A stretch of 48,706 nucleotides of DNA, filler included, from Jimgerdemannia flammicorona (lineage: Eukaryota): assembly GCA_003990765.1 (NCBI GenBank). It is 2 parts of 2 records of this genome, joined end to end, with 100 filler letters (N's around TTAATTAATTAA, not from the genome) between each part and the next. Parts side by side here need not be neighbours in the genome. Positions count along the whole stretch, not along the records: positions 1 to 24,305 come from RBNJ01000992.1; positions 24,406 to 48,706 come from RBNJ01000993.1. One strand, 5' to 3'. Position numbers and translations under genes: made by a program. Positions 16,909-38,511 of this stretch are shown here, piece by piece; the stretch's first letter is position 1, and every line of letters starts with the position of its first letter. The notes below the pieces were generated by a model. It was not told the DNA's origin and ran no database searches. It saw only the letters and a program-made list of their open reading frames with translations.

Positions 16909-17853
16909 AGAATGTATGCGATTGAGGCGTGCCTAACAGTTCACAGTTGAATAATTATGAACAAGATCCCTCACAGTATAACACTGATTCAAATTCCGAG
17001 AAAATATCTATATTAGGAAACTCAAGCGGGACTTGTATACAAATGTTCTCGACAAAGGCCAAAGTTAATAAGCATCGGAGAACTAGCCGTGAACGCCGAT
17101 TCATACATTTTGTGGACAGGAGAATTAGCCCGTGCGCGCCGATCCATACGCATCCGAACAAAAAAAGGCAGCAAGACTCTTCAGCAATGTCATTTATTGG
17201 AGGAATCTTTAAAGTTAGAGAACAACTATCACCATGTAATTATAATTTCAGAGTATGCACACACACGGCCCTTGAGAGCGGTGGCTGTGCCTCTGTAACC
17301 AGATATAAGAATGAACGCAGATTATTAAGAGACTATTACGTTTTTGGTGTGGGGGGAAGCACTGTGGGGTAATAGTAACACAGAATGGAATCAAAAAACT
17401 CAGTCACAATAGTAAGACTCATCGAGCGAGCAGCCGACGTGAGCGGGTATGATGGTGGCCTCGGTAATCCGCCGTAGAATGTGTGCGAATGAGGCGTGCC
17501 TAACAGTTCACAGTTGAATAATTATGTACAAGATCCCTCGCAATATGACGATTTAAATTCCAAGAAAATATCTATATTAGGAAACTCAAGTGGACTAGTA
17601 ATTATATATACATTCGGAGAATTAGCCTTGAACGCCGACTCATACATTTTGTGGACAGGAGAACTAGCCCGTGCGCGCCGATCCATACACGTCCGAACAA
17701 AAAAGGCAGCAAGACTCTTCAGCAATGTCATTTATTGGAGGAATCTTTAAAGTTAGAAACCAACTATTGCCATGTAATTATGATTTCAGAATATGCACTA
17801 TTACGTTTTTGGTGTGCGGGGGAGCGGGGGGCCACTGTGGGGGGTAATAGTAA
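16909..17853. repeat. Direct duplication, period 567 bp (copies ~16909-17378 and ~17476-17853)
   Basis: Both copies start AGAATGT(A/G)TGCGA(T/A)TGAGGCGTGCCTAACAGTTCACAGTTGAATAATTATG and end GGGGTAATAGTAA, with internal indels; CpGs are retained. Confidence 0.9.
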
Positions 17854-17869
17854 TGAAAAACTCAACCCA

Positions 17870-19910
17870 CTACTGTCTCTATCTAGGATCACTGTTTATC
17901 ACATGTATTTTCTAACTTAATCTTCACCAGCTTTCTTGAGTATCTTCTTGTATTGTATTGCCAAGAAGGTAGTAATCTGGGTCTTGCTTGCAGGCTTGTC
18001 TGACTAAATGGTAATGTTAGCTCTATCTTAAAGTAAGATAACTTTGTTCTTACATCAATCAATCAATCTATAGATTTTAATATATTAGCTAGGGTTTTTC
18101 TAAGATCAGATTATGATCTCCTAGTGATGTGATCTTGAAGTTTACTTATTCAGTATTTCTGAATCTTGATGGAAGGTTTGGCAGCAATTGACTCAATAGA
18201 ATATAGTATACTATCAGTAGTAACTACTCTATTATTCTTGAATATAAGTTTGATAAGAATCTTAAGATTTTTGATAAGATTCTGATTGATAAAGTTTTTA
18301 GCTACTCTTTTATCTAATCTTTTTCTTAACCAAACCTTTGAAAATAAGTATAGCTTGAGCTCAGTTTTTTAATAAATTTGCTACTTAATCTAGAAAGTTC
18401 TAGTAGGCCTAAAGTAGCTTAAAGAGATACTTATAGGTTTAAGTAGTCTTGAAAAAAATAAGCTAAGTTTTATTTAAGTAGAAAAAGAAGATATTCATAC
18501 AAGATCTGAAAAAAAGATCTAGAAGAATTTTGGAAATAAAGAGAACCCCCAAGAAAACAGTTTTTAACAAAAATAACTAATAGAATTTTACAATATTTTA
18601 AAAGATTCTATAACTAGCTAAGACAAGATACTTAGTGCTAAAAAAAAGACAAGAATATTCTAGTAAAGTTTGGGTATTAAGAGAGGATTTTTAAGCATTT
18701 GAAAAGTGCTAGAACATTGTAAAATATTTAAGAAAAAATAAGAAAAAACTAGAAAAAAGATGCAAAAACATATATACTATAACTAAGATATAATTAAGAA
18801 ATTATTATATCTCTCTTTTCTTAAGAATAAACATTCTCATTAAATTCTAAAATTATATAAAAATAGTTATACTTAACCAAATTTCTTAAACTTATATAAA
18901 CACTATTATGAAGTGTTGACCACTTCATATAAGATATGTAAAAGCTAAAAACTTAGTAGTTAAAAATTCAAACTACTCAGGAAAAACTTTTTATTATTCT
19001 GAGTAAGTTTACTAGTAATAGCTATATTTATATATGAAAGTATATCAAGCTAGTAAGTAGAGACAGAAATATATATTTTGCCTCAAAGTCTTAAATGAGA
19101 TCTTATATATTCTTGAGATTAACTAGTAGTTTTCAAATAATATTATAATCAGAATAGTCTATCTATTTGATCAGATATTCAGATCAATAGTAGCAGATTC
19201 TTTTGTCTAAGATTTTCTTAATCTCATACTCAATATAGTCTTTAATGATTATAGAGATAGAAGACTTGAGAATTTGACTAGAGTAAGATAGTAATTGGTT
19301 TCAGATCTTAAGGTGAGATATACATATAAAAGACTGAGTATATCTATATAATTTTAGATAGCTTGAGATAATAGGAGAATATAGAGCTGTTCTGTAATCT
19401 CAAAGGATCTAATAAACTTAGATTAAAACTTATTTGATAAATAGTTGACTTAAGATTATATCTTGAGATTCTCAGTAGACAATAAGACTTAATCATTAAT
19501 AGTATAGATAATATCATAGTATTTCTTATTAGCATATATACTTTGCTTGATATTATTGGGTCTTTTAAAGATTTATAGTAATAATTTTAAGTATTTTTTT
19601 TTTTTTTTTTTTTTTTTTTAACAGACTCAAAGTCCTGATTTTGAGTATTTTATCTATCTTATTTATAAGGTTCTTAGTAGTAGAGACTTGTATTTGACTG
19701 CTTTTCTAAAAGAAGACTAACTTGTAAAATCTCAAGATCTTGACTATAAAGTAGCCAAAAAGAGAAAAGACTAGTAGATAATTAGACTATATATTATTAT
19801 ATATAGATTAAATAGTGGTCTCAATTATCCTACTTATAAGAAATAGAGTTTTTAAGTATCCATAACAATTTCTTAGTTATATCTTAGTTATAGTATATTT
19901 TTATATCTTT
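17870..19910. mobile_element. Extremely AT-rich decayed repeat relic, family unidentifiable
   Basis: No CpG found in ~2 kb; TAG/CTA/TAA-rich; no intact ORF. Confidence 0.5.
19594..19635 (-). mobile_element. Micro retro-insertion (16-nt 3' end + A26) with TSD
   Basis: T-run 19594-19619 then AACAGACTCAAAGTCC, flanked by TAATTTTAAGTA (19582-19593) and TGATTTTGAGTA (19636-19647), which differ only by G>A. Confidence 0.6.
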
Positions 19911-19912
19911 TC

Positions 19913-22224
19913 TCTTGGATATAGGCAGGGAGTGCTGGAGGAATAAGAGGGTATATATATATTGGACAGGGGGCTTGAGGATGAGAATTGATTGGATTCT
20001 GATGGCCAGTTGCTGGGGCTTGGATGTTTGGAAGTCACTGGAGGTAGAATGGTATCCTTGGTTAAATTATTGGGGGCTTTTAGGACAGAGGCATTTTGGA
20101 GAGAGTGGGGATGGGCCTAGACATTAGTGCCTCAATTTCTCCTTATTAGATGATAAGATCTGGTAGGATGAGTGGGCTGCAGACATTCAACTGAGGGTAG
20201 AGTATTGGAGACAAGAAGGTGCCCCAGTTGGTGTTTGGTAGATATGGATGAAAGAGATGGCCAAGACCTACTGGAGTGAGGCTAGCAAGGAGGCTGGAAA
20301 ACAGAGGAGGCAATAGATGAGATAGGCTTCTAGTAGACTATCTAGACTCTTAGAGGATTGGGCAAGACTGGTAACATTAGAGGGAGAGGAGAATTGGAGA
20401 TCAATGAGGGCAAAAAGGGAGGTTGGCAAACTACAACAGATATTGTGAGAGGAGGAAGAGGTAAAGGTGCAGAGCTTGGCAGCATGGCTCCATTGGCAGG
20501 GTTTAGAAGAAGGGGAGAGACTCTCAAAGTATCTCATAAGAGCCCTTCAGGTGAGAAGGGTGCAGCAAAGGTAAGAGGGGGTGCTTGACTCTGATGGTAT
20601 ACTGGTACATAGTATACAAGATATTCTTGGATCTTTAAAGAAGCATTGAAGTGGATTGTGGAGTGAGAAGGAGAGTGGGGTAGATGCTGATGCTATTGAC
20701 CAAGCATTAGAGGATTGGTACCCCCTATAAGTAGATAGGTTGGGAGACTTGATATTGTCAGTACAGGAAGAGAAGATCTACCAGATTCTTGCCATAACAA
20801 TGCTGGATATAGTGTCTGGAGAGGATGGTTTGCCCTGGGACTTCTGAGAGAAGATGGTGGGGATCCCAGAAGTACTGGGTGAGATGACAACATTGTGTGA
20901 TTTGATTCTACAGACAGGGAGATGGGTGGGGAAATAAGATCTGAGGTTGGTGACATTACTTTACAAGAACAAAAGAAGGTGAGAAAACTGGAAGAACTGG
21001 AGGCTGATTATGCTGCTGGATATGGACAGAAAGTTGGTTACTAAGGTAGTGGTTGTGAGACTACAAAAGGTGGCCCAGTAAGTCTTGGGTGTTGAGTAGA
21101 GGGGCTTTATAGGAGGCCAGCTTATCAGTGATGACACAGCCTGGGTATATGGAGTTATTGAAGAGGTACAAGCTAGTAGATTGGATGGATGCCTGGTCTT
21201 TTTGGACCAGAAGAAGGCTTATAATTGGGTGAGGTGAGTCTGGCTGGCAAAAGTATTAAATAGGACTGGAGTTCCATACCAGTTCAGGTCAGCAATGGTC
21301 AGCCTACTGGAAGAGAGTAGGGCTGCACTCATGTGTAATAGATATAGAGGGGTAGCATTTCCCTCTGGATAGGGGGGTACTCCAGGGAGACCCACTGTCC
21401 CCCATTCTGTATGTCCTTTTCCTGAAACCCCTAATAGATAGAATTAGGCAGAAGATAGTAGGGCTCTCTATCTTTGGCATTGGGTGGAAAGTAGGGGTCT
21501 TTGTAAATGACATGGTAGTTGGACTGAGATCTATTGCTGATGTGGAGGAGCTTAAGAAGACAGTGGAGTGGTATGAGGAGAACTCTGGGGCTAAACTTAA
21601 TTGGCATAAGTGTGAAACAATGGTGCTAGGCAATGGTCTGGTAGGAGGAGAGGTTATTGGAACAATTGTCCCTACTGGTGAGGCAGTATAGTACTTGGAT
21701 ATCTATCTGTCAGTGTATGGGTCAGTTCTACCCAGGCTTTGGTGGGAGCAGCAAGTTGGAATCTGGGAAGAGGCCCTGCAGAGTTGGGGGGGGTTGCCAA
21801 TTATCTCTGTCTCGATTTTGAACATCTACTGGCTGCTGAAGTTATGATATCTGACTTATCATCTAGACTTCTCAGCCTGGGTAGTGAAGAGATTGATGAA
21901 GCTAGCCAAGGGGTGGATCTGGGCTGAAAGAAGGAGTCAGATCAGCTGGAAGGTCTTGTCCTTACTAGTGGTGAGTGGTGAACTTGGGCTGGTTGACTTT
22001 CCAAAAGAGGCTATACTGCTTGAGAGCATGGTGGCTGAAGAGAGCTATGGAGTTGAGAGGGGGAGATTGGGTTCCTCTATTGCAGAAGGTCTGAGAGATG
22101 AGGTCCTCACCAAGAGGCTTGACTGGAGATCTTCTATCTTTGGTTGGCCTTCAAAATACTGAACAATTGTGATACAAAGGCTTCTGGTGGGGGGGTGGCA
22201 GAGGGGGTACACTATATTGGAATT

Positions 22225-22294
<70 letters not shown>

Positions 22295-24305
22295 GAACTC
22301 ATAGTCTTATGGATTTTTATTGGAAGAGAACCTAGACTATATAGGCCAAAACCCGCCCCCACTATCCACCAAACAATATTCCCCTATTAACCTAAGCTAC
22401 TAAATTGTTCAGCAGTCCCACTGCTCCAACTATACCTGTCAAATACTGACTATATTGACCCCAATAATATAGACTAGACTTGTCTGCTCACTAGGGCTGG
22501 ATCATCATTTACACATGAGAGCACACCTATATGTTGGATCTAGCAGCACCAGGACTGAATAAAGAATAGCCCCCCGAACCCCCAAAAAAAGCCTGAGGTA
22601 AAGAAAAAACCCCCCAATCAACCAATAGAGAGCAAAGTAGATTTAAAGCAGATGAGTAAAGGACTTATACATAGCACCTTTCTCAAAGGACTTATACATA
22701 GGCTAGGGCCTGAAAAGATCCCACTTCCACTCCCTGAGCCTGCAGGCCTCGATCATGTTGCCATATCAGCTCTTGATTTCAGTCAGATACTGCCAAATGA
22801 GGAAGGTCCCACTCCCCAAGCCTGCAGGCCTCAATTGTGTTGCCATGTCAGCTCCTGGTTCCAGTTGGGTACAGTCAGGATGCTGGCCCCTGCACCACCC
22901 CACCCCCCACCAGCCAATCGAAAGGCCCTACTGAAATATTGTCCACCCCAGCCCTGATGACTGCCCCCAGTCTGGCACCCCACTAGTTCACCATTATCGC
23001 CCATCCTCCTATCTGTGATAGCCATCTCCCCTCCCATCCTGACAATACCTGAAAAGCAGTTACATATGCCAGAACCACACTTGCCAGGAAGCTCGCCAAA
23101 GCCAGAGGGCCCCACCACAGGCACTGAGGACCTACAGATAACCTACACTGAGCACTTGATGCCCAAGGTTGGCTGACTCTCTATGTAACCTGTGACGCAC
23201 TGAGGCTGTACCTTGTTGACAATAGCAAAAGGAAGAAGGCACCACACCAAAACCGATACACTCCAGATGTAGCCAAAGGTACCAGAAACTACAAAAAAGT
23301 GGAGAAGATACTGATCAGATACTAATAAAGGGGCAACTCATCACTATTGCCCTTCTCTCACTATGCCCATATAGGCACAGCAAACCAACCCAAGGTAGAG
23401 GGGGTACTGTATTGGAATTCATTGGTAGAGAAATGAAGGAGAGGTGGCTTGGGACCTGGCAATATAGAGATGAGACTGAGTATTGCTGGGTAGTATTCCC
23501 TTACTCGAGTTTGACATTAGTAATGGGATAGAATACCAAAGGAGACCAGGTCAGGATCTGTGGCCCAGTGGTTGGTAAGGAGTAGGAATTGGCAAAGAGT
23601 GAGACTAGCATGGTATTTGGGCCTGGAGTGCTGAGGTGAGAAGATGGATACCACTGAAGTACTGAGTGACTTGATGGTATATATTGAGGAGAAATGTAAT
23701 GCTCAACTACCACTCAGGTCACCTTATCAAGAGAGATTGCTTTGACTGTGAGGAGTGCCATAATGTAGGACAGAAAGGAGGATATATGCAGATGCCTGAA
23801 CATTGGCTAAGAGAGTACAAGATACTTAGTGACTTTTGGCAGACTGTTGGAGATCATTTGGGGGTAGGGTGCAGAAGAGTTGGCATGCAGGGGCAGTGGG
23901 AGGATTTGAGGAATAGACTAGTGGGGGGGTGGGAAAGGAATGGCTCACATTAGGCTAGGCTCTGGCTATTTGGGTGGGGTTGGCCAGCCACTGGCTATTT
24001 GTTTTTGAGAATGAGAGGAGACTGGGCTTAGGGACCTTGCTGCAGTAGCATAGCCTTATGGAAGACACCTTAACAGGCTGGTGGCTTGGTTGGAGGTTGC
24101 AGGGTGGTCAGAGGTATCGATTGGTAGAGAAAATCTATAGGCAGAGTGGGGAAAGGGTTGGAGTAGTGGGTAAGAAGATAGTCTTTGATTGAGAGAGAGT
24201 AGAGAGAGACTCTCCTATGGGGATTAGGTAGTGGGAGGAAATACTGTAAACTTATTAATAGACTGGTAATAAATGGTAGAGTCTAAGTGATTATAAATAA
24301 AAAAA
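19913..24305 (+). mobile_element. 5'-truncated, degenerate L1/Tx1-like LINE (ORF2: end of APE, RT, CCHC), copy A
   Basis: MRIDWIL (APE), NWRLIMLLDMDRKLVTK, FLDQKKAY, QGDPLSPILY, VNDMV (decayed ADD), C-terminal CEEC...PEHWLREYK; 3' end AATAAA...TCTAAGTGATTATAAATAAAAAAA runs into the gap. Confidence 0.88.
22227..23393 (-). mobile_element. ~1.1-kb poly(A)-tailed retroposed element without a recognisable ORF (SINE-like or LINE 3' UTR), inserted in LINE A
   Basis: T65 at 22227-22291; AATAAA about 20 nt before the tail on the minus strand; TSD GG(C/T)AGAGGGGGTAC(AC)T(A/G)TATTGGAATTCA at 22197-22226 and 23394-23421; LINE A ORF2 resumes after 23421. Confidence 0.8.
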
Positions 24306-24405
24306 NNNNNNNNNNNNNNNNNNNNNNNNNNNNNNNNNNNNNNNNNNNNTTAATTAATTAANNNNNNNNNNNNNNNNNNNNNNNNNNNNNNNNNNNNNNN
24401 NNNNN
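24306..24405. other. Artificial scaffold spacer: N44-TTAATTAATTAA-N44
   Basis: Exactly 100 bp; TTAATTAATTAA (24350-24361) places stops in all six frames, a known pseudomolecule linker. Contiguity across it is not guaranteed. Confidence 0.95.
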
Positions 24406-25921
24406 AAAAAAAAAAAAAAAAAAAAGAGATTGAAAGTTTTCCATTTATAGGACCCAAGGAGATATCCTCATATTTGTCAACTATACTTTCATCAGAAACA
24501 AGTATTTAAGAATAGAAAATAGAAAAATATTAGTCTAGATTTCTCCAAGTATCAATATAATGAGCAGGGCCACCAAGTTGGATTTTCATTGGAATATAGT
24601 ATTAAAAGGTATTTTACAAATAAGATATCAGATAGTATCTAACAATTAGGCAGAGATGATCAAAGGAAAAGGTGATTAACTTTGTGATACATATTCATAA
24701 TATCTAATAGTAACATTTGTTGAAATTTCAATTAACATTTCAATTTAACTCATAGCCTAAAATTATGGTAGAGATAGAGAGAGAAGATAAAATAGAAGAA
24801 GTGAGAACAATACAACTAATTATAGTAGATAATAAGATAATGAAATTTAAATATATATGTTACAATTAATTATATTTCTTAGGTATTAATATTTTATTAA
24901 ATATTTAGCCTTTCTAGATATATACCTCCTTTACACTAATCTCTGATGAAAAGGATTATATTATAGCTCTGGTTAAAAAAACAAATCTATTCTGCATACC
25001 TGATTTTGTAAAATTTACAGAGATATATCCTGATAAGAAATCTTTACAGAAAGTATTTCCTAGTCAATACAATTCCAATATATCTTCAAAATGATTCAAA
25101 TAAATTCAAAAAATCCACATTATATATAGATCTGTTATTCTACTAGAAGGTCATTGGTGGTATTGACTACTTGCATTTACTAGATAAACAACTATTATAT
25201 TGCAGCCCAAAATATATACTCTTCATAAAAATCATGAGAGCTGGTATGACCTAGTACTTTTAATAGTCAAAGCTTCTATAAAGATCATTCACACCACAGT
25301 GGTACAATATCCAGATAGGATATCACTTATTCATGAGTATCCTTTGGCCATTGGTATAACAGCACTTATATATCTAACTGGTCTACTAAGCAGTTAAGTT
25401 GTAGCTATTGTTAGGTAGCTTGGATGGCTACCTGGCCTCCATATTCAGTGATCCATAACAGATCCATAGCTTATTCTAGGCAAAATGAAGTGCAAATTAT
25501 TACTACCATAGGTAATATCATACACTTTTGTGATTTTGTCCAATAATATAAAGCTAATTTAAATATAATAGTACAAGGTGTCACATTTGATACATCATTT
25601 TATAGGTGTCTTAAATGAGTATACAGAGGCTATACCAGATGTAGCATCTGGTGTATCAATTGGGCTATAGATAACTATAACCAGTGTATTTCTTTTGGAC
25701 AGACTCCACTATATTTACTGATGGATAACTCTAATCAGAGGAGAGCATATCAATACTACAAACAGCACCCACATGATATACTATATAAAATTGATAAATA
25801 TACATTCACATAAGGCATATATATCTATAGATTATAACATATATCTGATTTACTATTACTAACATATGGGGAATATTTTGAGTACTTCAAACAATTTGTG
25901 ACCCAACATCAGATTGGAGAG

Positions 25922-27440
25922 TGTAAGAGGGTTGCTTTTTAGAGTAACTGTTACATAGTTCTGGAGGATTTTCTGGAAGTTCTGGATATTCTGGAAGACT
26001 ATTTTCTTAAGGTCAAGATCAATTTTGTATAGAGTATATCCTCTATGCTTATTGATTTCAAGATCAGGTTGACATCTCAACCAAAGTCCTTTTTCGGACT
26101 AGTTCTGGATGTTCAGGATTTTCCATATTTCAGGAAGTTTAAGAAACTAAGACCAGTTTAGTTGAATTAGCATATCACTACAGACAATACCTAATTAGGA
26201 AATTTCATGATGGGGTTAGGAGTAGGACCTAACAGGAAGCAGATTTACTTAAGAGTAGTTTGTGGGTTATTAAATAGGTTTATTTGCTATTCATGATATT
26301 GCTATACTAGGAGTAGTTGTATGAAGGGATATTGTAGGGAAGTATTCAGGAATGTTCTTATATGTTTGAGTCTGTTCAAGTCTGTTTAAGTCTATTAAGT
26401 CTGAGATTCTGAGGTCTGGAAGAGGGGGTATTTATACTAGTGAGGGGCTATCTAAACTATGCTAGATATAGATATAGCACTTAGTGCCTTGCTGAGTCAG
26501 AATGCAGTCACATAGTACAAATGTAATCTGACATATCAAGAGATCATCTGACTGCTGAGTCAGTTTACAGTCACATCATATAAGACTAATCTAACTATAC
26601 TATAACTGTTAGGCTATCTATAGATTTAGATACTGTCTAGATAGTCTTTGATGACATCACTATTGATGACATCATTGCTGGCAAAGTCTGAGCAGTTTTC
26701 TGACTTCTGATATTATCAGTTTCAAGGTATCATCACTTCTATCTCTTGCAAGATTAAGGCTGTCCTTGGTGGCAGTGGTTGTATAAGGATAACAGGTCTT
26801 GGTTCTCTTTTTTTTTGGCCTGCTGGCATATTTGCGAGAACTGGCCATTCTTATCTAGGGCGAGGGCTCCCAATATTACAGCTGGGGGTTCGAACCTCTT
26901 GGAAATGATATTTTCTGTAATCTGAGGCAATTTCTAGTAGTAATATCTATTACATGGATAGCTTGAGATTGGTTTCGATGATGTTGGCTTTCTTGAGTTC
27001 AGATGAAGCATCTGTTATTCTCCAATAGAGGTGATACAGATAGAGCAAACAGAGTTGTTTAAATGTGTTTTGCTTCTGCTAAGTAATGAGGTCTTGTATA
27101 GTTGTAGTATATCTTGGTCTTGAGTTTGATAAGTGTAGTTCATGAACCCTTGATAGATGAGATAGGGTCCTTCTTGTCTCAGTTTGAGTTTGGTACTTTC
27201 AGTTTCCTTTTGTAATAGTACAGTATACTAAACTAGTTATAGAGGTTCAGAGTTGGTCTTATAGTTATAGTACTTCTTCTGGTATTCTTATATCTTGGCA
27301 GTAGGTTCTCGTGTTTGCTGGCATATTTTGTGTAACCAGATGATCTCTTCAGTAACTTGTTTTATAGTCTTGCATGTGGTTTCCAAATTAGTTCTGAGGA
27401 TGATATGCAATTTTGGTGGCTTAGAGGTTGTACACTTATA
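25922..27440 (-). repeat. 3' LTR (1519 bp)
   Basis: Aligns along its length with 30836-32335; ends CTTATA (C>T of CTTACA); adjacent PPT AAGAAGGGGAGAGT at 27454-27441. Confidence 0.95.
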
Positions 27441-27455
27441 ACTCTCCCCTTCTTA

Positions 27456-30400
27456 GCTTTTGATGTCCTCATCGGAGTCTTCTAATTTGTTCTAGTGTTG
27501 TTGTACCATTTGGATGGTTCTTGTGACTATGTTTGTTGAGGATTTGTTCAACTTTGTACTCTTCTTAGTCATTGATAATGACAGGTACAGGTGGTTCTGT
27601 AGTTTGGTTCAGAAATGTGTCTCAGACCTTCTGGAGTAATGGTCTGATATGGCTGTCAACTTTGGAAAAGTCTTCTTCAGAGTTCTCAGGTTCTCCTTTG
27701 AATGGACAGATGGAGATAATGAAGAGAGGACATTTCTTGGCCAATTTCTTGAGCTATAGCTTGTTGATGTGGGTGATCTTTGATCTGGGGTCACTAGAGC
27801 TAAGTGGGTCCTTTTCACCTTATAGTTTAAAGTTGTGGCATCCTTTCTTGATGGTCAGAGAATGGTTTACCCAATTGATCATGAGGTTTTCTTATTTTAA
27901 CCATGGAGTTCTAAGGATAATTTTATTGTCTAGAAGTGGTATGATCTGGAGGGTAATATGTACTTGGTAGTTACCAATTCAGAAGGGTAGATTGTGGACT
28001 TCCTTACTAATGACATGGGAGGTTCCATCAGCTGTAACAACTGCTTGAGTTTGTTATATCAGAGAGGTGAAGACCTTGAGTCTATTGGCTGTTTCTTCAT
28101 TGATGAAGTTGCCTGAGGCACCACTGTCTATCATAATCTTGACAGGTGCTCAGTTGACAAAAGCTTGAAGTATAAGCAGTTTGTCTGATCCAATGGTAGT
28201 GATTTCAGTTATAGGAGCTTTCCTTCTGTTGGTTCTTCTTTGAGCCAATTCATTGACACAAGAGAAGCAATCATCAATTATTCGGGAAGAGTATATTCCA
28301 ATATCATGGGGGCATCAGCTACTAGGTACATATCTATCTTTGATTTTCTTGTAGAATTATTCTTCTTTGTTCATAGTAGGTTGGACTGGGGCCTTGTTTG
28401 ATGAGCCAAATCCTTTGGATCCTTAGATGGTAGATAGTAGTTCAGGGACTTCCTTGACTATCAGAGTTAACTCAATTTTCTCAAATAGGATCTAGACAAT
28501 GCAGAAACCAATAGAGATCTTGAAGGGTATCCAACTATGGTTTCAGATGAGGACAATAATTTTGCCTGTATAATCTTCATCAATGACTCCTCCTTCTACT
28601 GAGAGTCCTTTCAATGTCAGGTTGCTGTGACAGTATATCCTTCCAATATGTCCTTCAGGGACTTGGATGCTGATTCCTATATAGACTTGCTTGACTTCTT
28701 GGTTGAAAACTGTAGCTTCTTCAGCTGCATACAGGTCATATCTAGCTGCCTTTTGACTTCCTTTGATTGGGGCCTTAGCAGTTTGCCTTAACTTGACAAA
28801 GTCCAGTATTCTGGTTATCAGATTATTGAGGTAGTGTAGAGTAGTAACAGTTGCTCATATTACTATTTGGGGTTTTCAGTTGGGGCAGGCACTGGCCATA
28901 TGTCCTGTCTTTCAGCAATAGAAGCATGCTCCACTTCTTCAAAGTTCATTCCTTTCTCCTTCAGTGAGTTTCTTAAAGGAACTTAGCTGGGTGAGTTCAT
29001 GATTTCTGGGTGTCTATAAGATAGATATTGAGGGAGCTTGGGATGCTTCATGCTTGGGTTCTTCTTTTTTGGTTCAAGTTTTTTTCTTATTGTTGAATTG
29101 TCTTTGGGGCAGAATTGGTCCAGCTGTTAGAATTCACTTGACCATAGTCTTGATTCTTGCCAGGCACTATTGTTGGTGATTGCAACCAACTGGGTGGCCT
29201 TGTTCTCAGATTTTTCTAGTAAGCCATTCAGATAGGGTATTGAATAAATGATCTGCTCTTATACCATTTCATGCTTCATCATTGGCAATATATCTTAGGC
29301 CAATGGTGTTCAGGAGTGACTTGAGTTTCATACAGAAGGTTTTGAATTCTTCTTTACTATGTACATCGAATTTGAGATTATGGAGTTTGACTTGAGATTC
29401 AGTGATTATAGTTTTGCTGCAGTATTGAGCAATCATGAGTTGTTTTAGTCCAGGAGCTGCAGGATGGGCTCCATATTCTAGAGCATTATTTGCTGCATTT
29501 TGGGCAACTACTGTAGGTTGGGTGTCCTATGTGAGGGGTTTTTCAGAAAGGGTTTACCACTATTCTTCAGCAGGTCCTCAGAAGAATATAACAACTCATC
29601 AGACATAGGCTGTAGTAATAGCAAAGAGTTGTTCCAGAGTGTGGTCTTGATTGTTTATTAGAAGGCAGTTAGCAACTTGCTCATTGGTCCATTGATTGGC
29701 CTCAAAGTTGGTGTCAACTACACTAATAAAGCTTTGAACTTCTTGTGCAGTACCATTGAAGGTAGGTAGGCTCAGATTTTTGGTAGATCAGATCTGTTTG
29801 GCTAAGGCAGTAATAGTTGCTGCCATTATGGCTACCTGGGCTGTGAGGTCTAGAATTTGTTGGTTTGCCATATTATTTACTGGAGGTGGTTGGACTGCTG
29901 GTAGTGGTGTTACAGGTACTACTTGAGGTACTGGTGCAGAGTGTAATGGGGTTCTTTGAGTCTGTGTAAGTTGCTGGAGTAATAGTTGTGGGTCTAGAGT
30001 AAGGGCTCAATAGGTAGTTGTCTGTTGCTATATATGTGTGTTCTGGCCTAATGGAGGTGCATCTCCTTCAGTAGTATATCCAGGATCAAATTTACTGAGA
30101 TACTCCTTCTCCTCTTCAGTTTGGTCCCCATATAGTTGGGTTTGCTCAGCATCAAAGTAGACAGAATCAGTTGTATATCTGATTTCAGAAGGACTTAATT
30201 CAAAGTCAAGTTCTGGTTTGGTATTGGTTTCAGGTTCAGGTAGAGCTGTAGCAGGACCTACTTCTGATTCAAGGTCGAGTAGTTGATGAAGAATTTCTCT
30301 TGCTTCTTCTTTAAGAATATGGCAGGCCTTACTGTTCTGGAATTGGTAGTATAATGTGGTCTTGATCCTAGTATGGTGAAAGTCAGTAGAGTTGAGCCAC

Positions 30401-30796
30401 TTGGCTATAGAGGCTTGGGCTTCATGAGGAACTAAGGCTAGAAAGACTGCTGATGGTTGTCCTAGGTTGCTCAGATTTGTGGAGCTGACAAAACTCTTGT
30501 TGAGAAGAGTAAAGAAGGCTTCAATAAGACCTTCTTCATCTTGACTTGCTGGGTATAGTGCAAGGAGTTCAGTAAATAAGGTTTTGCTTATTTGCTAATT
30601 TAACTGGAGTATTTCTTTCTTTGAATGAAGTTTGTCCCACTTATTGCAGATGTGGAGGTCAAATTGTCCTTGTATGTCAGGTTCAATTCTCTCCAGATTG
30701 TCAGATGGTTCAGGATAAATTCCAGTTCAGAGGTTGGGCTTTATACCAACTTGTAGGAATTCTCAGAGGGATTTTGTAGTGGAGATAAGAAAGCAT
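27456..30796 (-). pseudogene. Gag (CCHC knuckle)-dUTPase-aspartic protease-truncated chromodomain polyprotein
   Basis: One frame from the knuckle to the end, broken only by nonsense substitutions: CFYC*KTGHMASACP (28926-28885); dUTPase AARYDLYA / GRIYCHSN / GGVIDEDYTGK / CIV*I / *GSKGFGSS (28800-28399); protease IMIDSGASGNFI (DSG 28128-28120) and IILRTPWL; then PPVPVIIND*EEYKVEQILNKH. No RT, RNase H or integrase core. Confidence 0.9.
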
Positions 30797-30820
30797 CTTG
30801 AAGTGGAATTGGATTGTAAA

Positions 30821-30832
30821 CTACTACTACCA
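30821..30832 (-). promoter_or_regulatory. Primer-binding site (mutated, probably tRNA-iMet type)
   Basis: TGGTAGTAGTAG 3 nt after the 5' LTR; consistent with TGGTAGC... after C>T/G>A changes. Confidence 0.6.
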
Positions 30833-30835
30833 AGT

Positions 30836-32335
30836 TGTAAGAGAATTGCTTTTTAGAGTAGTTCTGGAGGGTTTTCTGGAAGTTCTAGATATTCTAAAAG
30901 ACTGTTTTCTTAAGATCAAGATCAATTTTATATAGAGTACATCCTCTATACTTATTGATTTCAAGATCAGGTTGACATCTCAACCAAAGTCCTTTTCAGA
31001 CTAGTTCTGAATGTTCAGGATTTTCTGTATTTCAGGAAGTTCAAGAAACTAAGACCAGCTTAGTTGAATTGGCATATTGCTACAGACAATATCCAATTAG
31101 GAAATTTCATAATAGGGTTAGAAGTGGGACCTAATAAGGAGCAGATTTACTTAAGAGTAGTTTGTAGGTTATTAAATAGGTTTATTTGCTATTTATAATA
31201 TTGCTATACTAGGAGTAGTTGTATGAAGGGATATTGTGGGGAAGTATTCAGAAATGTTCTTGTATATTTAAGTCTGTTCAAGTCTGTTTAAGTCTATTAA
31301 GTCTGAGATTCTGAGGTCTGGGGGAGGGGGTATTTATACTAGTGAGGGACTATCTGGACTATACTAGATATGGATGTAGCACTTAGTATCTTGCTGAGTC
31401 AGAATGTAGTCACATAGTACAAGTGTGATCTGATATATCAAGAGATCATCTGACTGCTGAGTTAGTTTACAGTCATATCATATAAGACTAATCTAACTAT
31501 ACTATGACTATTAGACTATCTATAGATTTAGATGCTATCTGGGTAGTCTTCAATGATATCACTATTGATGACATCATCACTGGCAAAGTCTGAGCAGTTT
31601 TCTGACTTCTGACATCATCAGTTTCAAGGTGTCATCACTTCTATCTCTTGCAAGATTAAGGCTGTCCTTGGTGGCAGTGGTTGTACAAGGATAACAGATC
31701 TTGGTTCTTTTGACCTACTGGCACATTTGTGAGGACTGACCATCCTTGTTTAGGGTGAGGGCTCCCAATGTCATAGCTGGGGGTTCGAATCTCTTGGAAA
31801 TGATATTTTCTATAATCCAAGACAATTTCTAGTAGTAATATCTGTTATGTGGATGGCTTGAGATTGGTTTTGACAATGTCAGCTTTCTTGAGTTCAGATG
31901 AAGTATCTGTCATTCTCCAACAGAGGTAATATAGATAGAGTGAATAGAGTTGTTCAAATGTGTTTTGCTTCTGCTAAGTAATGAGGTCTTATATAGTCAC
32001 AGTATATCTTGGTCTTGAGTTTGATAAGTGTAGTTCATGAACCCTTGATGGATGAGATAGGGTCCTTCTTATCTTGGTTTGAGTTTGGTACTTTTAGTTT
32101 TCTTTTGTAATAGTACAGTATACCAAACTAATTATAGAGGTTCAGAGGCAGTCTTATGGTTGTGGTACTTCTTCTGGTATTCTTGTATCTTGGCAGTAGG
32201 TTCTCATGTTTGCTGACATATTTTGTGTAACCAGATGATCTCTTCAGTAACTTATTTTATAGTCTTGCATATGGTTTCCAAATTGGTTCTGAGGATGATA
32301 TGCAATTTTAGTAGCTTGGAGGTTGTATACTTACA
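30836..32335 (-). repeat. 5' LTR (1500 bp)
   Basis: TGTAAG at 30836, CTTACA ending at 32335; minus-strand TATAAATACCCC near 31330-31338 (also near 26425-26436 in the other LTR). Confidence 0.95.
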
Positions 32336-32555
32336 GAGAGCTACCTGAAAGCTTCATATAGATAAGGTAGCATACATTTGATTTATGTATCTTTGATATT
32401 CTATACTTTGCGAAGTATACATGGTAGAGATTTCGAAAAAGTCTCTAGGTAACAGACAGACCAATTATGGTATCATCATAGTTAGCAAATACCATACTCT
32501 TCATACATAGTAATGGGGAATTCAAACCTACTATTTACTGAAAAGTACATCAACA

Positions 32556-35500
32556 GATGCTTTTCACTGGTATCATTTGGGTGATACAAGACTCAGACAA
32601 CACTTTTTACAATGTTTTTGATATTCAATAACTATCAACATAAATGGCAACAATTGAACTAGTGAGTGTACTGGCCAGGGGGATAGTGGTACCTTTGGCT
32701 GACAGTAGGTGGGGAGGAGGGGAGATGGTTTGGGGATGCCAGGGGCCTTAATGGCTAGCTGAGGCCCTGGTGGTGGAGAGAGGGGCAGCCTGAGGCAGAG
32801 AGGAGGGGAGAGGTCAACCTTTGCTGACAAGATCAGAATAGGAAAGATGGCCTCTGGTCTGGATGATTGGTTGGGCCTGGGGAAGGCGTCGAGAGCTGCT
32901 GCTGAAGGATAGGGAGGTGTGCCCAGGGGAGTTTCAGGTAGTAGAGGGGGAGCAGGAGTAGGGGCTGGAGATGTGACTATTGATGGGGCTGTGACTGGGG
33001 ATCTGGCAAAAAATCCAGATGTGATGGCAGTTGATAATTCAGGACAGGGGATGGGCATGAGGCCTGGAGACCTGGCAGATGGAGTGACAGGCATGGTGTT
33101 GGCCCCGTTACTCAAGAAGTTGAGGTCAGAATTCATGGTCACAATGAGTTTCAGGGGCTTAGCAGTGATGGTGAGGATGATCTTAGGGCTGGTGGTGTAG
33201 GAGACAAAGAAAGTAGCTTTGGTGAAGTTTTTGAAGGGGAAGGAAGGGGTCAAGATGGGGTTTGAGGAAGAAGATGCCTTGCTGACAGCCTTGGAGAAGG
33301 GGGTGACAGTTGGTGGGGTTGTGGTCCCTATGGCCAGGTACATATACTGAGACCCCCAAGTGGTACAGTTGATAGTGTTGGATCTCCCTATATTGTTGAA
33401 GGAGAGGACTAGAGAGTTGGTTGTAGAGGTAATCAAGGAGTATGGAGAGATTGTAGATGTTGGGTTCAAGGTCTGGGAGGGTATGGAGCTCTGGACTGGT
33501 GATGTCGATGTCAGGATAAGGCTGGCTGGAAAGGAGAATATAGCGAAGATAAGGGACTGGCCAGTGATGCTGAGGTGGGGACTGGTGGAGTGTAAGGTCA
33601 CAAGGGTGAAGAGGACCCAGGAGGAGGAGAAAGACCAGTTGGAGGTTCTGAAGGATCTGAAAGGAGTGGTTGCGAGGAGGAGATTGGCCTGGAAGGAGTT
33701 TGAGGCCAGGATGGTGGTGGGGGAGGTAGATGGGAAGAGGGTCCAGATGGAGAGAGAGACCTGGGAGAAGATGCAGGGAAGGAAAATCCAGAAGGAGCTG
33801 CTGGCGAAGTTGAATAGGGGTAGAGCCAGCAGAAGTGCAGGGGAGGGAGATGTAGGATTGCAGAAGAGTGCCTGGGCTGTGGGGGGTGAAAGGGCCCATA
33901 GTGGGGCTCAGACTGGATTGGAGGAGGAGAGGGAAGGTGGCATGGAGGTAGATGCAGAAATGAGTGAAGATGTATACTCTCAGTATAGTGTCCTGGGTGG
34001 AGCTGAGGGGGAGGAGGAACTGCTGGATGTGCTAGATGAAGAGTAGGATAAGTTAGTGAGGAGGAGTGCTCTGGTGGACCCCAAGGTGGATGGGGGGCAA
34101 ATCATCCAGAGTATGGCAGAGGTGGTGGATGAGGAGAAGTGGATGTGGAAGACCCTGGAAGGGGTAGTGGCAGAGGAGCTGAGGGGAGAGGATTTCAGGG
34201 TTATGGAAGAGAGGTATTGGGAGGAAATCCTACAGGAGGAGAAGGTGTTGAGGAAGATGAGGAACAAGATCCTGATTGTCCTCCTGGAGTTGGTTGAATA
34301 TCAAGTCGATGATCAGAGGGAGGAGGAACTTAGGGGGATTGTGAGTGACCAGGCATTATACTTGTGGAACTCAAGGAAGGGACTGGAGAAGTAGTGCACA
34401 GTCTGCATAGACTACTAGTTAGAGATGGAGGTAGTGGATGGGGTGGAATGTCAGGAAATCTTAGAGATGCTGGATGCTCAGGCTAATGCAGAGGGTGACT
34501 TGGAAGCTGAATGGTGCTTGGATCTGGCTGGGGATGAGATGAGCATGGAATACTAGGCTGGGGTCCCAATTGCAACATTCTTTCAATATGAACAGTATAA
34601 CTAGAATATTCTCTTTGAACATAAATAGGTTATGGGGGGTAGCTAGGAGGAAGTATATATTTGGATGGCTAAAGGGACTGGATGCAGACCTCTTTTTGTT
34701 GCAGGATGTTCATTATGAGACAGATGTGGATTTATAGGATTGGACTAAGAAATGGGGGGGGGGCGGCAGTATGGAGGGGGAGGGTGGGTATTCTCATTCA
34801 GAAAGGGATGGGGGACATTGGAGACATTGGTCATTGGGGGTCTTGGGTGGTGTGGAGAGTGTGGAAGAGGCCTGGATAGGGCTCGTTGACAGTTGAGTCT
34901 TGTTACTGCCCAGCTGAGAGAGGGGAGAGAGTGGATTGGATTTGCAGGTTGAAAGAGTCTGGTGTCTTGGGTGAGGTTGGGTTGGACTGCCTGGGGGGTG
35001 ACTTCAACATGGTATGGGATAAGGAGATGGACAGAACAGATGGAGAGAGAGGTATGTGGAGTGAGAGTAGTGGGTTGGAGGACTGGTTGGAGACAGAGAG
35101 GTTGAGTTCTTTAGTAGACTCAGGAAGACAGTTTTGGGACAATCAGCAGGTATACACTCACTGGGTGATAGGGCTGGGCTCTAGGATTGATTGGGTTTTG
35201 ACAGCAGTGCTGGGGAGTAGATGTCTGGATGGTGCTAGAGGTAGTTTGATATCCATGGTCTGATCACTGGGAGCTGCTAGGAGGGGGGAGGTTTGGGGGA
35301 AGTGAGGATGGGCCTGGATATTGGTGACTAAATTCTGCCTTGTTAGAGGATGGGGTTTTGTGGGAGGATTGGGAAAAGAAGGTTATTGGGAATATTGGAA
35401 GGTGGCAGGAATGAGGCCTGGGAATTGGGGACTACTGGAGGAGACTGAAGGCAAATGCTCAGGGGTATTAGAGGGAAGCAGGGAAAGGAAGGTGTGCTCA

Positions 35501-37929
35501 ATGATGATGGTGGGTGCTGTGGGCCTTGCAGTGTCTGGCAGCACTTATGGGGAGATGGGCAGGTGTGCTAGAAGATGGGGAGGTGACTGACTAGCATATT
35601 GTGAGGATCTGAAAGAAGGTGGAGGAGCTTAAAGGAGTGTTATGAAGAGAGAAGAAGGTGAGGCTACAGGAGATAGTGGCCCAGCTGTGGTAGCAGGGGC
35701 TTGAGGAGGGGGAGAGGCCTACTAGGTTTTTATCATGGTTGTTATAAGTACGATAAATGAAGCAGTGATGGGAGGGAGTCCTGGATGCAAATGGCAAGCT
35801 GGTGGTGAGGACTATAGCGATTCTGGGTTTACTGCGAAACTGTTGGAAGAATCTATGGAGTGAGGAGGAAGGAGGAGTGGATGCTTTGGACATTAAAAAG
35901 CAGCTGGGAGATTGGCACCCAAACCCTGTGATGGGCCTAGGGTCTTTGGGGGACCCAGTGAGTAGAGAGGAAATCTGCAAGGTTGTGGCCTCGATGAGTA
36001 AGGGGATATCTCCAGGGGAGGATGGACTTCTCTGGGATTTTTGGAAGAAGATGGCTGGAGTGAGTGAGGTGCTAGAGGAAATGACTGCTATGTGTGGTGA
36101 GATTCTTCAGTCTGGTACTTGGATAGGGGGCCAGTGTCTAGGGCTAGTCTCCTTGCTCTACAAGAATAAGGGGAGGTGGGAAGATTGGAAGAACTGGCAG
36201 CCAATCATGCTACTTGACATGGACCACAAACTGGTGACAAAGATCTTGGTGATGAGGCTGCAAGGAATCGCTCAGCAAGTGCTTGGTGTGGAGCAGCATG
36301 GATTTGTCAGGGCTGGTTGATTTGTGATGGGACAGCTTGGGTACATAGTGTGATTGAAGGTGCCCGGGCTACAGGGGTGGATGGATAGTTGGTATTTCTG
36401 GATCAGGAGAAGGCATATGATAGAGTGCAGAGAATCTGGCTAGAGGGAGTGCTGAAATGGATTAGTATTCTCCTGGGGTTCTGAGGATCATTGATCAGCC
36501 TCTTGGAGGACAGTCAGGCTATGTTGGTCATCAATGACTATAGGGATGTGGTCTTTCCCCTAGGTCATGGGGTATCACAAGGTGACCCCTTGTTACCCAT
36601 ATTGTATGCCCTCTCCCTGGAGCTCCTACTGGACAGGATTCAGTATTGAATCAGGGGTTTGGACATTCTAGGGATAAATTGGAAGGTGGGGGCCTTTGCT
36701 GATGATATGGTGGTTGGACTGGACTCCTTGGTGGATGTGGGGGAGTTATGGCAGTCTGTGGAATGGTATGAGAGGGGATCTGGTGCTAAACTAAACTGGC
36801 ACAAATGTGAGACTCTAGTGCTGGGTGCTGGAATTATTGGTGGTGATGTAATTGAGATGGTGGTGCCAGCTGGTGAACCAGTGTGTTATTTGGGGATCTA
36901 CTTCTTGGTGTTTGGATCTCTTCTTCCCCATGCATAGTGGAGCCAACAACTTCTGGAGTGGGGAAATGTTCTGCTGTGATGGGGAGGTCAGCATATGTCC
37001 TTAGCTGGAAAGGTGATGGTACTGAATGTGTATTAGATACTAAAGCTGTAGTATGTGGGGTATCATTTGGATTTTCTGACCTGGGTGGTCAGAGGGCTGT
37101 TGAAGATGGCGAGATCATGGATCTGGGGAGGGTAGTGAAGTCAGGTGGGTTGGGAGGTGCTCACACTACCTATGGAAAGAGGTGGGCTGGGTTTAGCTGA
37201 CTTTACTAAGTGGCTTCATTGTTTAAGAGCTTGGTAGTTGAGGAGGGTAAGTGAGCTGAGAGGTCAGGAGTAGGTGCCACTCATGCAGAGGGTGTAGGAG
37301 GTTCAGTATTTCTCTTGTGGTGACTCTGGTAATCTGCTTGCGATGGTGGCCATAGATGGGAGCAAAAGGATACAGTTTACAGGCTTCTGGTGGGGGGTGG
37401 TGGATAGCACTAAGAAAATTGGACTTTGGTGGTAAGGTGATGAAGCAGAGGAGAATTGGGGACCGTGAATGTGGTGGTGGGACAGGCTTCTACTAGGTGG
37501 TGTTCCAGTGGAGGATTTTCAACTTAGAGAGGATATGGAGTATACCCTTGGCTGGGCTCTGGCCATGTAGGTTGGGTTAGCTGGGCATTAGGTATATGTA
37601 TTTGAGGAGAGACAGCAGGTTGGGGTTGGGGACAAGGTGGCATATTAAGAATGGTTATTACTGGACATTTTGAATGGCTGGTAGTAAGGGTGGGGGCCAG
37701 GTAAGGGGAATCACAGGGGTTTAGTGCAGTGTATCTCCCAGAAGAGTGGCAGGAGGATTTGGGTAGTGGGTGACTGGGCTGTGCTCAGGCAGGGGGAGGT
37801 TAAGAGGGGAGGGATGGATCTACAGAGCATTGGTTGAGAGTTTGGGGTGACATTGTATTGTTAGAATTATAGACAGCAGTAATAAAAGGGCAGTCCAAGT
37901 GACTATAAAAAAAAAAAAAAAAAAAAAAA
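32556..37929 (+). mobile_element. Near full-length degenerate L1/Tx1-like LINE, copy B (ORF1 + APE-RT ORF2)
   Basis: TSD AAAAGTACATCAA(C/T)A at 32541-32555 and 37926-37940; poly(A) tail; ORF1 in one frame ~32630-34556; ORF2 from ATG 34588: FSLNINRL...LLQDVH, LGGDFN, SRIDW, SDH, SPGEDGL, NWQPIMLLDMDHK, FLDQEKAYDRV, QGDPL, FADDM. Confidence 0.93.
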
Positions 37930-38511
37930 GTACATCAATATTCAAAATATTGCAAGGGTGAGTAGATATATATGAAATTCAATTCTTACTAGACCTCATG
38001 CTGCTATGTGTAAGCCTTACAATTGCATCACAAGACGAAAACCAAATACTACCAAAAATATAGTTAATATTAGCAAAATTAACAAGCTATGGCATGGAAT
38101 AAGAACAATTACCAGACTGATACCAACTGAATAGGCATATTGCACTATTACAGATATGAGCATAAGCTTGATTGTATATCATTTTTAAATATAAAAGTTT
38201 GATCAGCTTTTGTAACCATTTAATTATTGATAGCTATACTTTACTATTTATCAACATATGTATGTAGTTTATTTATTATATAATATATACCATTTTTTTT
38301 TTTTTTTTTTTTTTTGTTTTATATAATATATTATAAAATAGATTATAATATTAAAACTTGTAAAATTTTATCTTATTAAATACTGAATTAAAATCTATTT
38401 GTCTATCTTTATAAAGCATATATCTTAAAACTGTTACAAACAAATTCTATTATTATTAAACTCTATGAATGTGTTTGCATGACAATGTATTTTATTATTG
38501 TTGTTGACGAT

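Follow-up and report, generated by a model that had tools for sequence, protein, structure and literature searches.

Slower loss of CpG at TCG sites in a decayed transposon island of an Endogonales fungus

Introduction

Repeats of the Pucciniomycotina (Microbotryum, Puccinia, Melampsora and Rhodotorula) show hypermutation targeted to TpCpG, and the excerpted part of the same study reports for the Agaricomycotina and Ustilaginomycotina only that CpG is hit in excess overall, irrespective of trinucleotide (Horns 2012, PMC3318451). The fungal CpG signature has been linked to a Masc2-like Dnmt1 (Amselem 2015, PMC4352252), and in the Glomeromycotina, a group related to the fungus studied here, the transposons of R. 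irregularis are highly methylated at CG, and an enzyme related to DNMT1 is expressed in this fungus (PMC8647823). The studies cited in this text are drawn on through excerpts, and what we say of them refers to those excerpts. Here we analyse a 48,706-nucleotide stretch of DNA from Jimgerdemannia flammicorona (assembly GCA_003990765.1), hereafter the window, in which a transposon island has lost nearly all of its CpGs and the 44 that survive are concentrated in the tetranucleotide TCGA.

Outside the fungi, mutation rates of methylated CpG 4-mers in humans show that an upstream A is the most mutagenic neighbour and that TCG is the slowest context; when CCGA:TCGG and GCGA:TCGC are methylated, the pair that lies in TCG mutates less readily than the other one, and the neighbours on the two sides act largely independently of each other (Chandra and Gao 2026, PMC13245866). 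At the level of the enzyme, mouse DNMT1 has flank preferences of almost 100-fold, correlated with methylation in the genome; the enzyme acts well on CCG and ACG and poorly on GCG (Adam et al. 2020, PMC7381644).

Results and discussion

The observed-to-expected ratio of CpG, counted in 2-kb bins, is 0.00-0.11 within 18001-38000 and 0.91-1.31 in the flanks, with sharp edges. A reading of the window made from the sequence alone (the sequence-only reading) had opened this region at 21812; a CpG-poor island does lie there, but its true start is about 4 kb earlier, since the CpG count is 0 across 17826-21812 and all 44 CpGs of the island fall between 21813 and 38036. The ratio (CA+TG)/(AC+GT) is 1.10-1.50 in island blocks, compared with 1.09-1.11 in the flanks. 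CpG has therefore been lost selectively, leaving TpG and CpA as products, and the loss is limited to repeats while the adjoining genes are spared; both are marks of methylation-driven decay. Dead retrotransposons lie nested in the island, which has lost about 97% of its CpGs to C-to-T transitions.

Listing every surviving CpG with its flanks gives 15 in TCGA, 8 in other TCG, 14 in other CGA and 7 in neither context (Table 1). This is exactly the tally of the sequence-only reading, whose 12 example positions are all TCGA and which had also noticed the same TTCGAA in both long terminal repeats (LTRs) of a retrotransposon within the island; the two copies, at 26891 and 31786, fall in homologous alignment columns. 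Its estimate that roughly 1/12 of survivors should be TCGA was equally sound, as four null models put that share at 8.2-10.5%. Contexts taken from the 1856 flank CpGs give 8.2%, with P(X>=15 of 44) = 1.2e-6; island base composition gives 8.7% (P = 2.5e-6); the flanks of island TG and CA, as new CpGs would inherit them, give 9.7% (P = 8.9e-6); and the frequencies of neighbouring bases within the island, P(T|_C) x P(A|G_), give 10.5% (P = 2.3e-5). Fifteen TCGA survivors thus stand against 3.6-4.6 expected. By dyad class, the strongest enrichments are those of TCGA (4.1x) and GCGA/TCGC (2.2x, 13 survivors).

The sample consists of 44 sites in one window, and TCGA was picked out after looking at the data, which might speak for chance; alternatively, the survivors might be new CpGs that arose where a TG changed its T to C or a CA its A to G. 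We regard both as extremely improbable. The P values lie between 1e-6 and 2e-5 under all four nulls, and in none of 200,000 multinomial draws did any of the 16 contexts reach a p-value as extreme as that of TCGA. A newly formed CpG would take over the flanks of an island TG or CA, and the share of TTGA and TCAA among those is just 9.7%. We also compared the window with contigs from a soil metagenome (run X1, which contains 7% of the sampled words; contigs aligned at a likeness of at least 80%). Among the 40 listed places at which the window differs from all of these contigs, 36 are transitions, and the window carries G or C at just 4 of the 36, so AT-to-GC changes are rare. Ancestral CpGs number just 3 among these 40 places. 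The TCGA excess is confirmed as real and far beyond chance.

Each CpG consists of two half-sites, one per strand, which makes 88 half-sites among the survivors. TCG-type half-sites account for 59% of them (52/88) and for 28% in flank CpGs, whereas the GCG type makes up 19% of survivors against about 26% of flank CpGs, the CCG type 12.5% against about 22%, and the ACG type 9% (8/88) against about 24%. A 5' T is present in 23/44 survivors (52%) and a 3' A in 29/44 (66%), and the product of these marginals predicts 15.2 TCGA sites where 15 were counted; the two flanks therefore act independently. The same agreement rules out an activity that recognises the TCGA palindrome as such.

To express these counts as rates, we used a Poisson model in which the loss rate of a CpG is the sum of its two half-site rates and the starting number of CpGs is assumed. 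The half-site fit departs strongly from equal rates (likelihood-ratio chi2(3) = 38.9), and the loss-rate order is ACG > CCG > GCG > TCG; if the island is assumed to have started with 1260 CpGs, R(A,C,G,T) = 2.65, 2.26, 1.94, 0.95. TCG is slower by 2.0-2.8 fold at that starting number and by 1.9-4.0 fold over assumed starts of 600-1600, and the ratio of TCGA to other rates from the survivor fit is 0.37-0.53. A cruder, island-wide strand-choice test, which compares the flanks of island TG and CA with gene flanks, points in the same direction: TCG is hit less than CCG (odds ratio 1.56, p = 7e-4), and the values for ACG against TCG (1.19) and GCG against TCG (1.28) agree in direction and are not significant. 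Decay of the flank itself, from CCG to TCG through CpC-to-TpC change, is ruled out as the sole cause, since it is the ACG-type half-sites that are most depleted and transitions cannot convert a 5' A into a T.

The two LTRs of a retrotransposon are identical at insertion, and their comparison needs no assumed ancestral composition. The pair in the island differs by 150 mismatches, of which 139 are transitions. Ancestral CpGs can be inferred at 18 positions: at 12, one copy now reads TG and the other CA, so that both copies have been hit, on different strands; five are kept in one copy, and one (TTCGAA) in both. Counting hidden sites as well, meaning an equal number of invisible CpGs in which the same strand was hit in both copies, TCGA survives at 3/8 copy-sites and other contexts at 4/52 (Fisher one-sided p = 0.043); the survival without hidden sites is 3/6 and 4/30 (p = 0.073). 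The TCGA-to-other rate ratio from the LTRs alone is 0.38, in line with the survivor fit. At single-hit LTR sites with one TCG and one non-TCG strand, it was the non-TCG strand that was hit in 4/4 cases. Together with the half-site fit, these LTR results support the claim of the sequence-only reading that loss is slower at TCG/CGA flanks.

The same LTRs bear on the objection that the ancestral transposon CpGs were already mainly TCG/CGA and survived equally in all contexts. The LTR CpGs were indeed TCG-rich at insertion, as about 10.5 of the 18 inferable ancestral sites have a 5' T (about 58%) and 8 have a 3' A, compared with 28% and 29% of flank CpGs. However, TCGA still outlived the other contexts between the paired copies, at the p-values given above, and just 1/12 of the doubly mutated LTR CpGs was TCGA. 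The excess also recurs in three unrelated blocks set by the LTR insertion, with TCGA shares of 5/11, 5/11 and 5/22, and a TCG-rich start would itself be the expected residue of earlier decay of the same kind. We therefore think it very unlikely that inherited composition accounts for the pattern. About 7/12 of the doubly mutated LTR CpGs have a 5' T, and the protection of TCG is relative, not outright.

The sequence-only reading had placed the direction of this bias opposite to the TpCpG targeting of the Pucciniomycotina (PMC3318451), and the counts bear this out. In both systems the C-to-T changes at repeat CpGs depend on the 5' base, but TCG is the target in those fungi, as far as the excerpts describe them, and the most spared context in the island: TCG, far from being mutated above ACG, CCG and GCG, has an R(T) of 0.95 when the other three half-sites have 1.94-2.65, with 1260 starting CpGs assumed. 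The decay of methylated transposons in the Agaricomycotina and Ustilaginomycotina resembles the island in that transitions are concentrated at repeat CpGs and genes are untouched; it differs in that the excerpted account gives no 5'-neighbour effect there, whereas the effect in this Endogonales island is clear. Since the host is an Endogonales fungus (see below), Microbotryum is merely a distant comparison.

We consider that the pattern probably reflects context-dependent decay of methylated CpG in silenced transposons, with TCG the slowest to go. The island, as a set of silenced repeats, would be or have been CpG-methylated; 5-methylcytosine (5mC) would deaminate to T on either strand, and a hit on one strand would suffice to lose the CpG. 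The loss rate per strand would be set by the 5' neighbour in the order found above, TCG being 2-4 fold slowest. A TCGA site, with a slow half-site on both strands, would then decay slowest and dominate what remains after about 97% loss, and the 4-fold excess of TCGA among survivors would arise because near-complete decay amplifies a modest 2-4 fold difference in rate. The context effect would lie in the chemistry, in T:G repair and/or in the flank preference of DNMT1-type enzymes. The methylated transposons of the related R. irregularis (PMC8647823) speak for this account. The counts themselves show the depletion, the bias to transitions, the order of contexts and the independence of the flanks; we infer methylation as the cause, a DNMT1 or DNMT5 gene in the host and the step that would carry the context effect. 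What is new on this reading is context-dependent decay of methylated CpG in an Endogonales fungus; the process itself is already known.

The closest likeness is to methylated CpGs in primates. The order of 5' neighbours is the same, A fastest and T slowest, and when the human strand rates are summed per dyad (S1 Table of PMC13245866, as excerpted), TCGA is lowest (4.14) and GCGA/TCGC second lowest (4.73), so the two slowest dyads are the two most enriched in the island. A model given the human rates beats one in which context has no influence by 9-11 log-likelihood units. Since the ranking equals that of primate methylated CpGs, it is probably a general property of 5mC mutagenesis. The two data sets differ in kind, the primate data being polymorphism and the island holding survivors after near-complete decay, in DNA whose methylation is presumed. 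The flank preference of DNMT1 (PMC7381644) also offers a partial parallel: good activity at CCG and ACG and poor activity at GCG fits the faster loss of ACG and CCG than of GCG in the island. That enzyme is from mouse and the host is a fungus, and the likeness covers ACG/CCG against GCG.

Several observations weigh against decay of methylated CpG as a full account. Unscaled human rates, with time scaled to survival, predict 13.5-16% TCGA where 34% is observed, and the fit is best when the human contrasts are enlarged 2.4-3.2 times, so that the island effect is about 2.4-3.2 times stronger; the rank correlation over 10 dyad classes is only -0.57 (p = 0.08). Ancestral CpG contexts are known for few island sites, and the survivors are few and from one locus. 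A 2026 review, in its excerpted part, gives early-diverging fungi near-undetectable 5mC overall (PMC13297926). Finally, the LTR pair carries non-CpG transitions, 73 of CpA type and 24 of CpC type against 5 of CpT type, at about 190 CpA, 100 CpC and 240 CpT sites per LTR copy. Plain CpG methylation does not predict CpA and CpC transitions, which hint at a broader, possibly RIP-like process (RIP, repeat-induced point mutation). The 40 listed differences specific to the window relative to run X1 follow the same pattern: 11 are TG to TA and 10 are GG to GA, and CTGG is the site of five of these 10.

These departures raise the alternative of a lineage-specific specificity, in which a host methyltransferase or a RIP-like deaminating system strongly avoids TCG, mirroring the TpCpG rule of the Pucciniomycotina. 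The size of the context effect, whether as the multiple of the human one or as the 2-4 fold slowing of TCG half-sites, is in its favour, as is the second context-specific C-to-T process that these LTRs record, in which changes at CpA and CpC greatly exceed those at CpT and which suggests an active mutator over passive decay; the preferences of up to about 100-fold in excerpts on mouse DNMT1 mean that enzyme-level flank effects this large exist (PMC7381644). However, the A > C > G > T order and the independence of the flanks match primate methylated CpGs, as excerpted, and the direction needs no special enzyme. TCG sites are, moreover, still mostly gone, as the doubly mutated LTR CpGs attest, and the effect size on which an enzyme would be argued depends on the assumed starting number and context mix of CpGs. 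We thus rate this alternative as unlikely, though worth keeping in view. A distinct enzyme specificity, as the sequence-only reading had proposed, is weakly suggested by the effect size, and a lineage-specific methyltransferase flank preference is possible given an effect 2.4-3.2 times the human one; the direction, being that of primates, does not require it. On present evidence we see in the island no new enzyme, only an ordinary process in a lineage new to it.

The CpA and CpC transitions could represent non-CpG methylation or RIP-like activity in an early-diverging fungus. RIP is expected to lower (CpA+TpG)/(ApC+GpT). In the island this index is above that of the flanks, so that instead of a preference for CpA/CpT and a lowered index, as in ascomycete RIP, CpG is the main target and the index goes up rather than down. 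The likeness to ascomycete RIP lies in transitions in repeated DNA and in the presence of CpA-to-TpA changes; TpA/ApT is 0.77-1.14 in the island and 0.70-0.72 in the flanks. As rough estimates from the counts, the LTRs have lost about 88% of CpG compared with about 16% of CpA, 11% of CpC and 1% of CpT. That this Endogonales fungus, from an early-diverging lineage, runs an active repeat-directed C-to-T mutator with the order CpG >> CpA > CpC >> CpT and a strong avoidance of TCG seems to us doubtful at best; if it did, RIP-like mutation would extend beyond Dikarya, under a flank rule mirroring the TpCpG rule of the Pucciniomycotina.

Returning to context-dependent decay of methylated CpG, the last surviving CpGs of a decayed repeat form a sensitive record of mutator flank preference, since near-complete decay magnifies small differences. 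A primate-like ranking in a little-studied, early-diverging mycorrhizal fungus argues that the ACG-fast/TCG-slow rule is very old or physico-chemical. The island pattern would also be indirect evidence of transposon CpG methylation in Endogonales, against the view of almost no 5mC in the excerpted review. Where the island departs notably from plain CpG decay is in the larger size of the effect and in the transitions at CpA and CpC that go with it.

Features of the window

Table 1 Positions of the island, its TCGA survivors and its recognisable parts, in window coordinates.
Feature	Position	Strand	Basis or remark
CpG-depleted transposon island with 44 surviving CpGs	17826..38036	.	CpG observed/expected inside versus outside; CpG listing
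TCGA sites, first seven of 15	21813, 22750, 22919, 23506, 24118, 26891, 26976	.	CpG listing
TCGA sites, last eight of 15	29367, 30276, 31786, 32434, 32890, 33506, 34307, 35992	.	CpG listing
Left LTR of LTR retrotransposon	25922..27440	- (element sense = minus)	6 CpGs including TTCGAA at 26891
Internal region of LTR retrotransposon, ~3.4 kb	27441..30835	-	dUTPase-like open reading frame at 28546-28854
Right LTR	30836..32335	-	one CpG left, TTCGAA at 31786
Target-site duplication GAGAG, left copy	25917..25921	.	sequence reading
Target-site duplication GAGAG, right copy	32336..32340	.	sequence reading
Reverse-transcriptase fragment of older element	21356..21688	+	Pfam RVT_1, E = 5e-12
Second reverse-transcriptase fragment	36650..36934	+	Pfam RVT_1, E = 1.5e-5, under gathering score
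Tandem duplication, GCGCGCCG-rich units	16909-17260 and 17476-17798 (span 16909..17798)	+	abuts the island's left edge

The window is fungal, with flanking genes that encode a Scm3 centromere-protein domain, a protein with LysM and chitin-binding domains, a Zn2Cys6/C2H2 protein, Arf, DUF747 and a PA/TFR-dimer M28-type peptidase. An exon of DUF747 on the minus strand, at 10385-10831, shares 99% identity with a protein that NCBI assigns to Jimgerdemannia flammicorona, its next matches (77-81%) being from Umbelopsis, Bifiguratus and Mucorales, and the top named match of the peptidase exon is Endogone sp. (47%). These matches place the host in the Endogonales (Mucoromycotina) and not among the basidiomycetes.

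The LTR retrotransposon at 25922-32335 is structurally intact, with LTRs of about 1.5 kb, TG..CA ends and a 5-bp GAGAG target-site duplication, and its left LTR aligns with 30836-32333 over 1517 bp at 89.9% identity. The minus-strand open reading frame (ORF) in its internal region matches Pfam dUTPase (E = 7e-17), and no reverse transcriptase or integrase was found in 27441-30835 among the scanned ORFs of at least 90 aa; the element may belong to an abundant non-autonomous or internally deleted family. The CpG retained in both LTRs (26886-26896 and 31781-31791) sits in GGGTTCGAA(C/T)C, which resembles the consensus that tRNA genes have at the T-loop / B-box. The window contains no tRNA according to ARAGORN, so that a tRNA relic around the conserved TTCGAA is rejected, and the resemblance may be chance.

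Of the older elements, the reverse-transcriptase segments at 20818-21733 and 36015-36928 are 65% identical by self-BLAST, a noisy pair with just 5 TG/CA columns. The second fragment sits in a G-rich block (32341-38036) with a GC skew of +0.43 to +0.55. More broadly, the plus strand has more G than C at 20001-22000 and 32001-38000 (GC skew +0.40 to +0.55, AT skew about 0), and island-wide TG (1689) exceeds CA (1033); the excess of G over C could come from the transposons' own composition or from strand-biased mutation.

In run X1, 5214 short contigs match the transposon part 25446-37925 at 80-100% likeness, with a summed depth that reaches about 1500 over the left LTR and is unbroken across 27441-30835. 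They differ from the window at 1151 places, of which 945 are transitions. No contig from this run lies on the genes at 37.9-40 kb or on the first bin, 24406-24925; the genome behind the contigs differs at the flanking locus, or coverage of the flank is too thin. The transposon families of the island are thus highly repeated in this run and common in one environmental sample at the least. A search of JGI metagenome contigs with an exact LTR pattern of 26 bases gave 0 matches, and the 188-aa ORF of the LTR element gave 385 pattern matches, among which no relative was confirmed.

At the left of the island, 17826-20800 is very AT-rich (GC 25% in 18001-20000), holds no CpG and is without a recognisable domain; it may be a much older, more heavily mutated element. 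Long stretches of T are found near 19596-19621 and 22228-22291. Two runs of N, 44 each, at 24306-24349 and 24362-24405 with 12 bases between them, form a gap within the island that could conceal more repeats.

The tandem duplication outside the island (352 bp, with a divergence similar to that of the LTR pair) has copies that differ by 17 transitions and 10 transversions and keep CG in both at 10/15 CpG columns. This speaks against duplication alone as the trigger: because these copies retain their CpGs, the mutator is tied to the island and not to duplication of this size per se.

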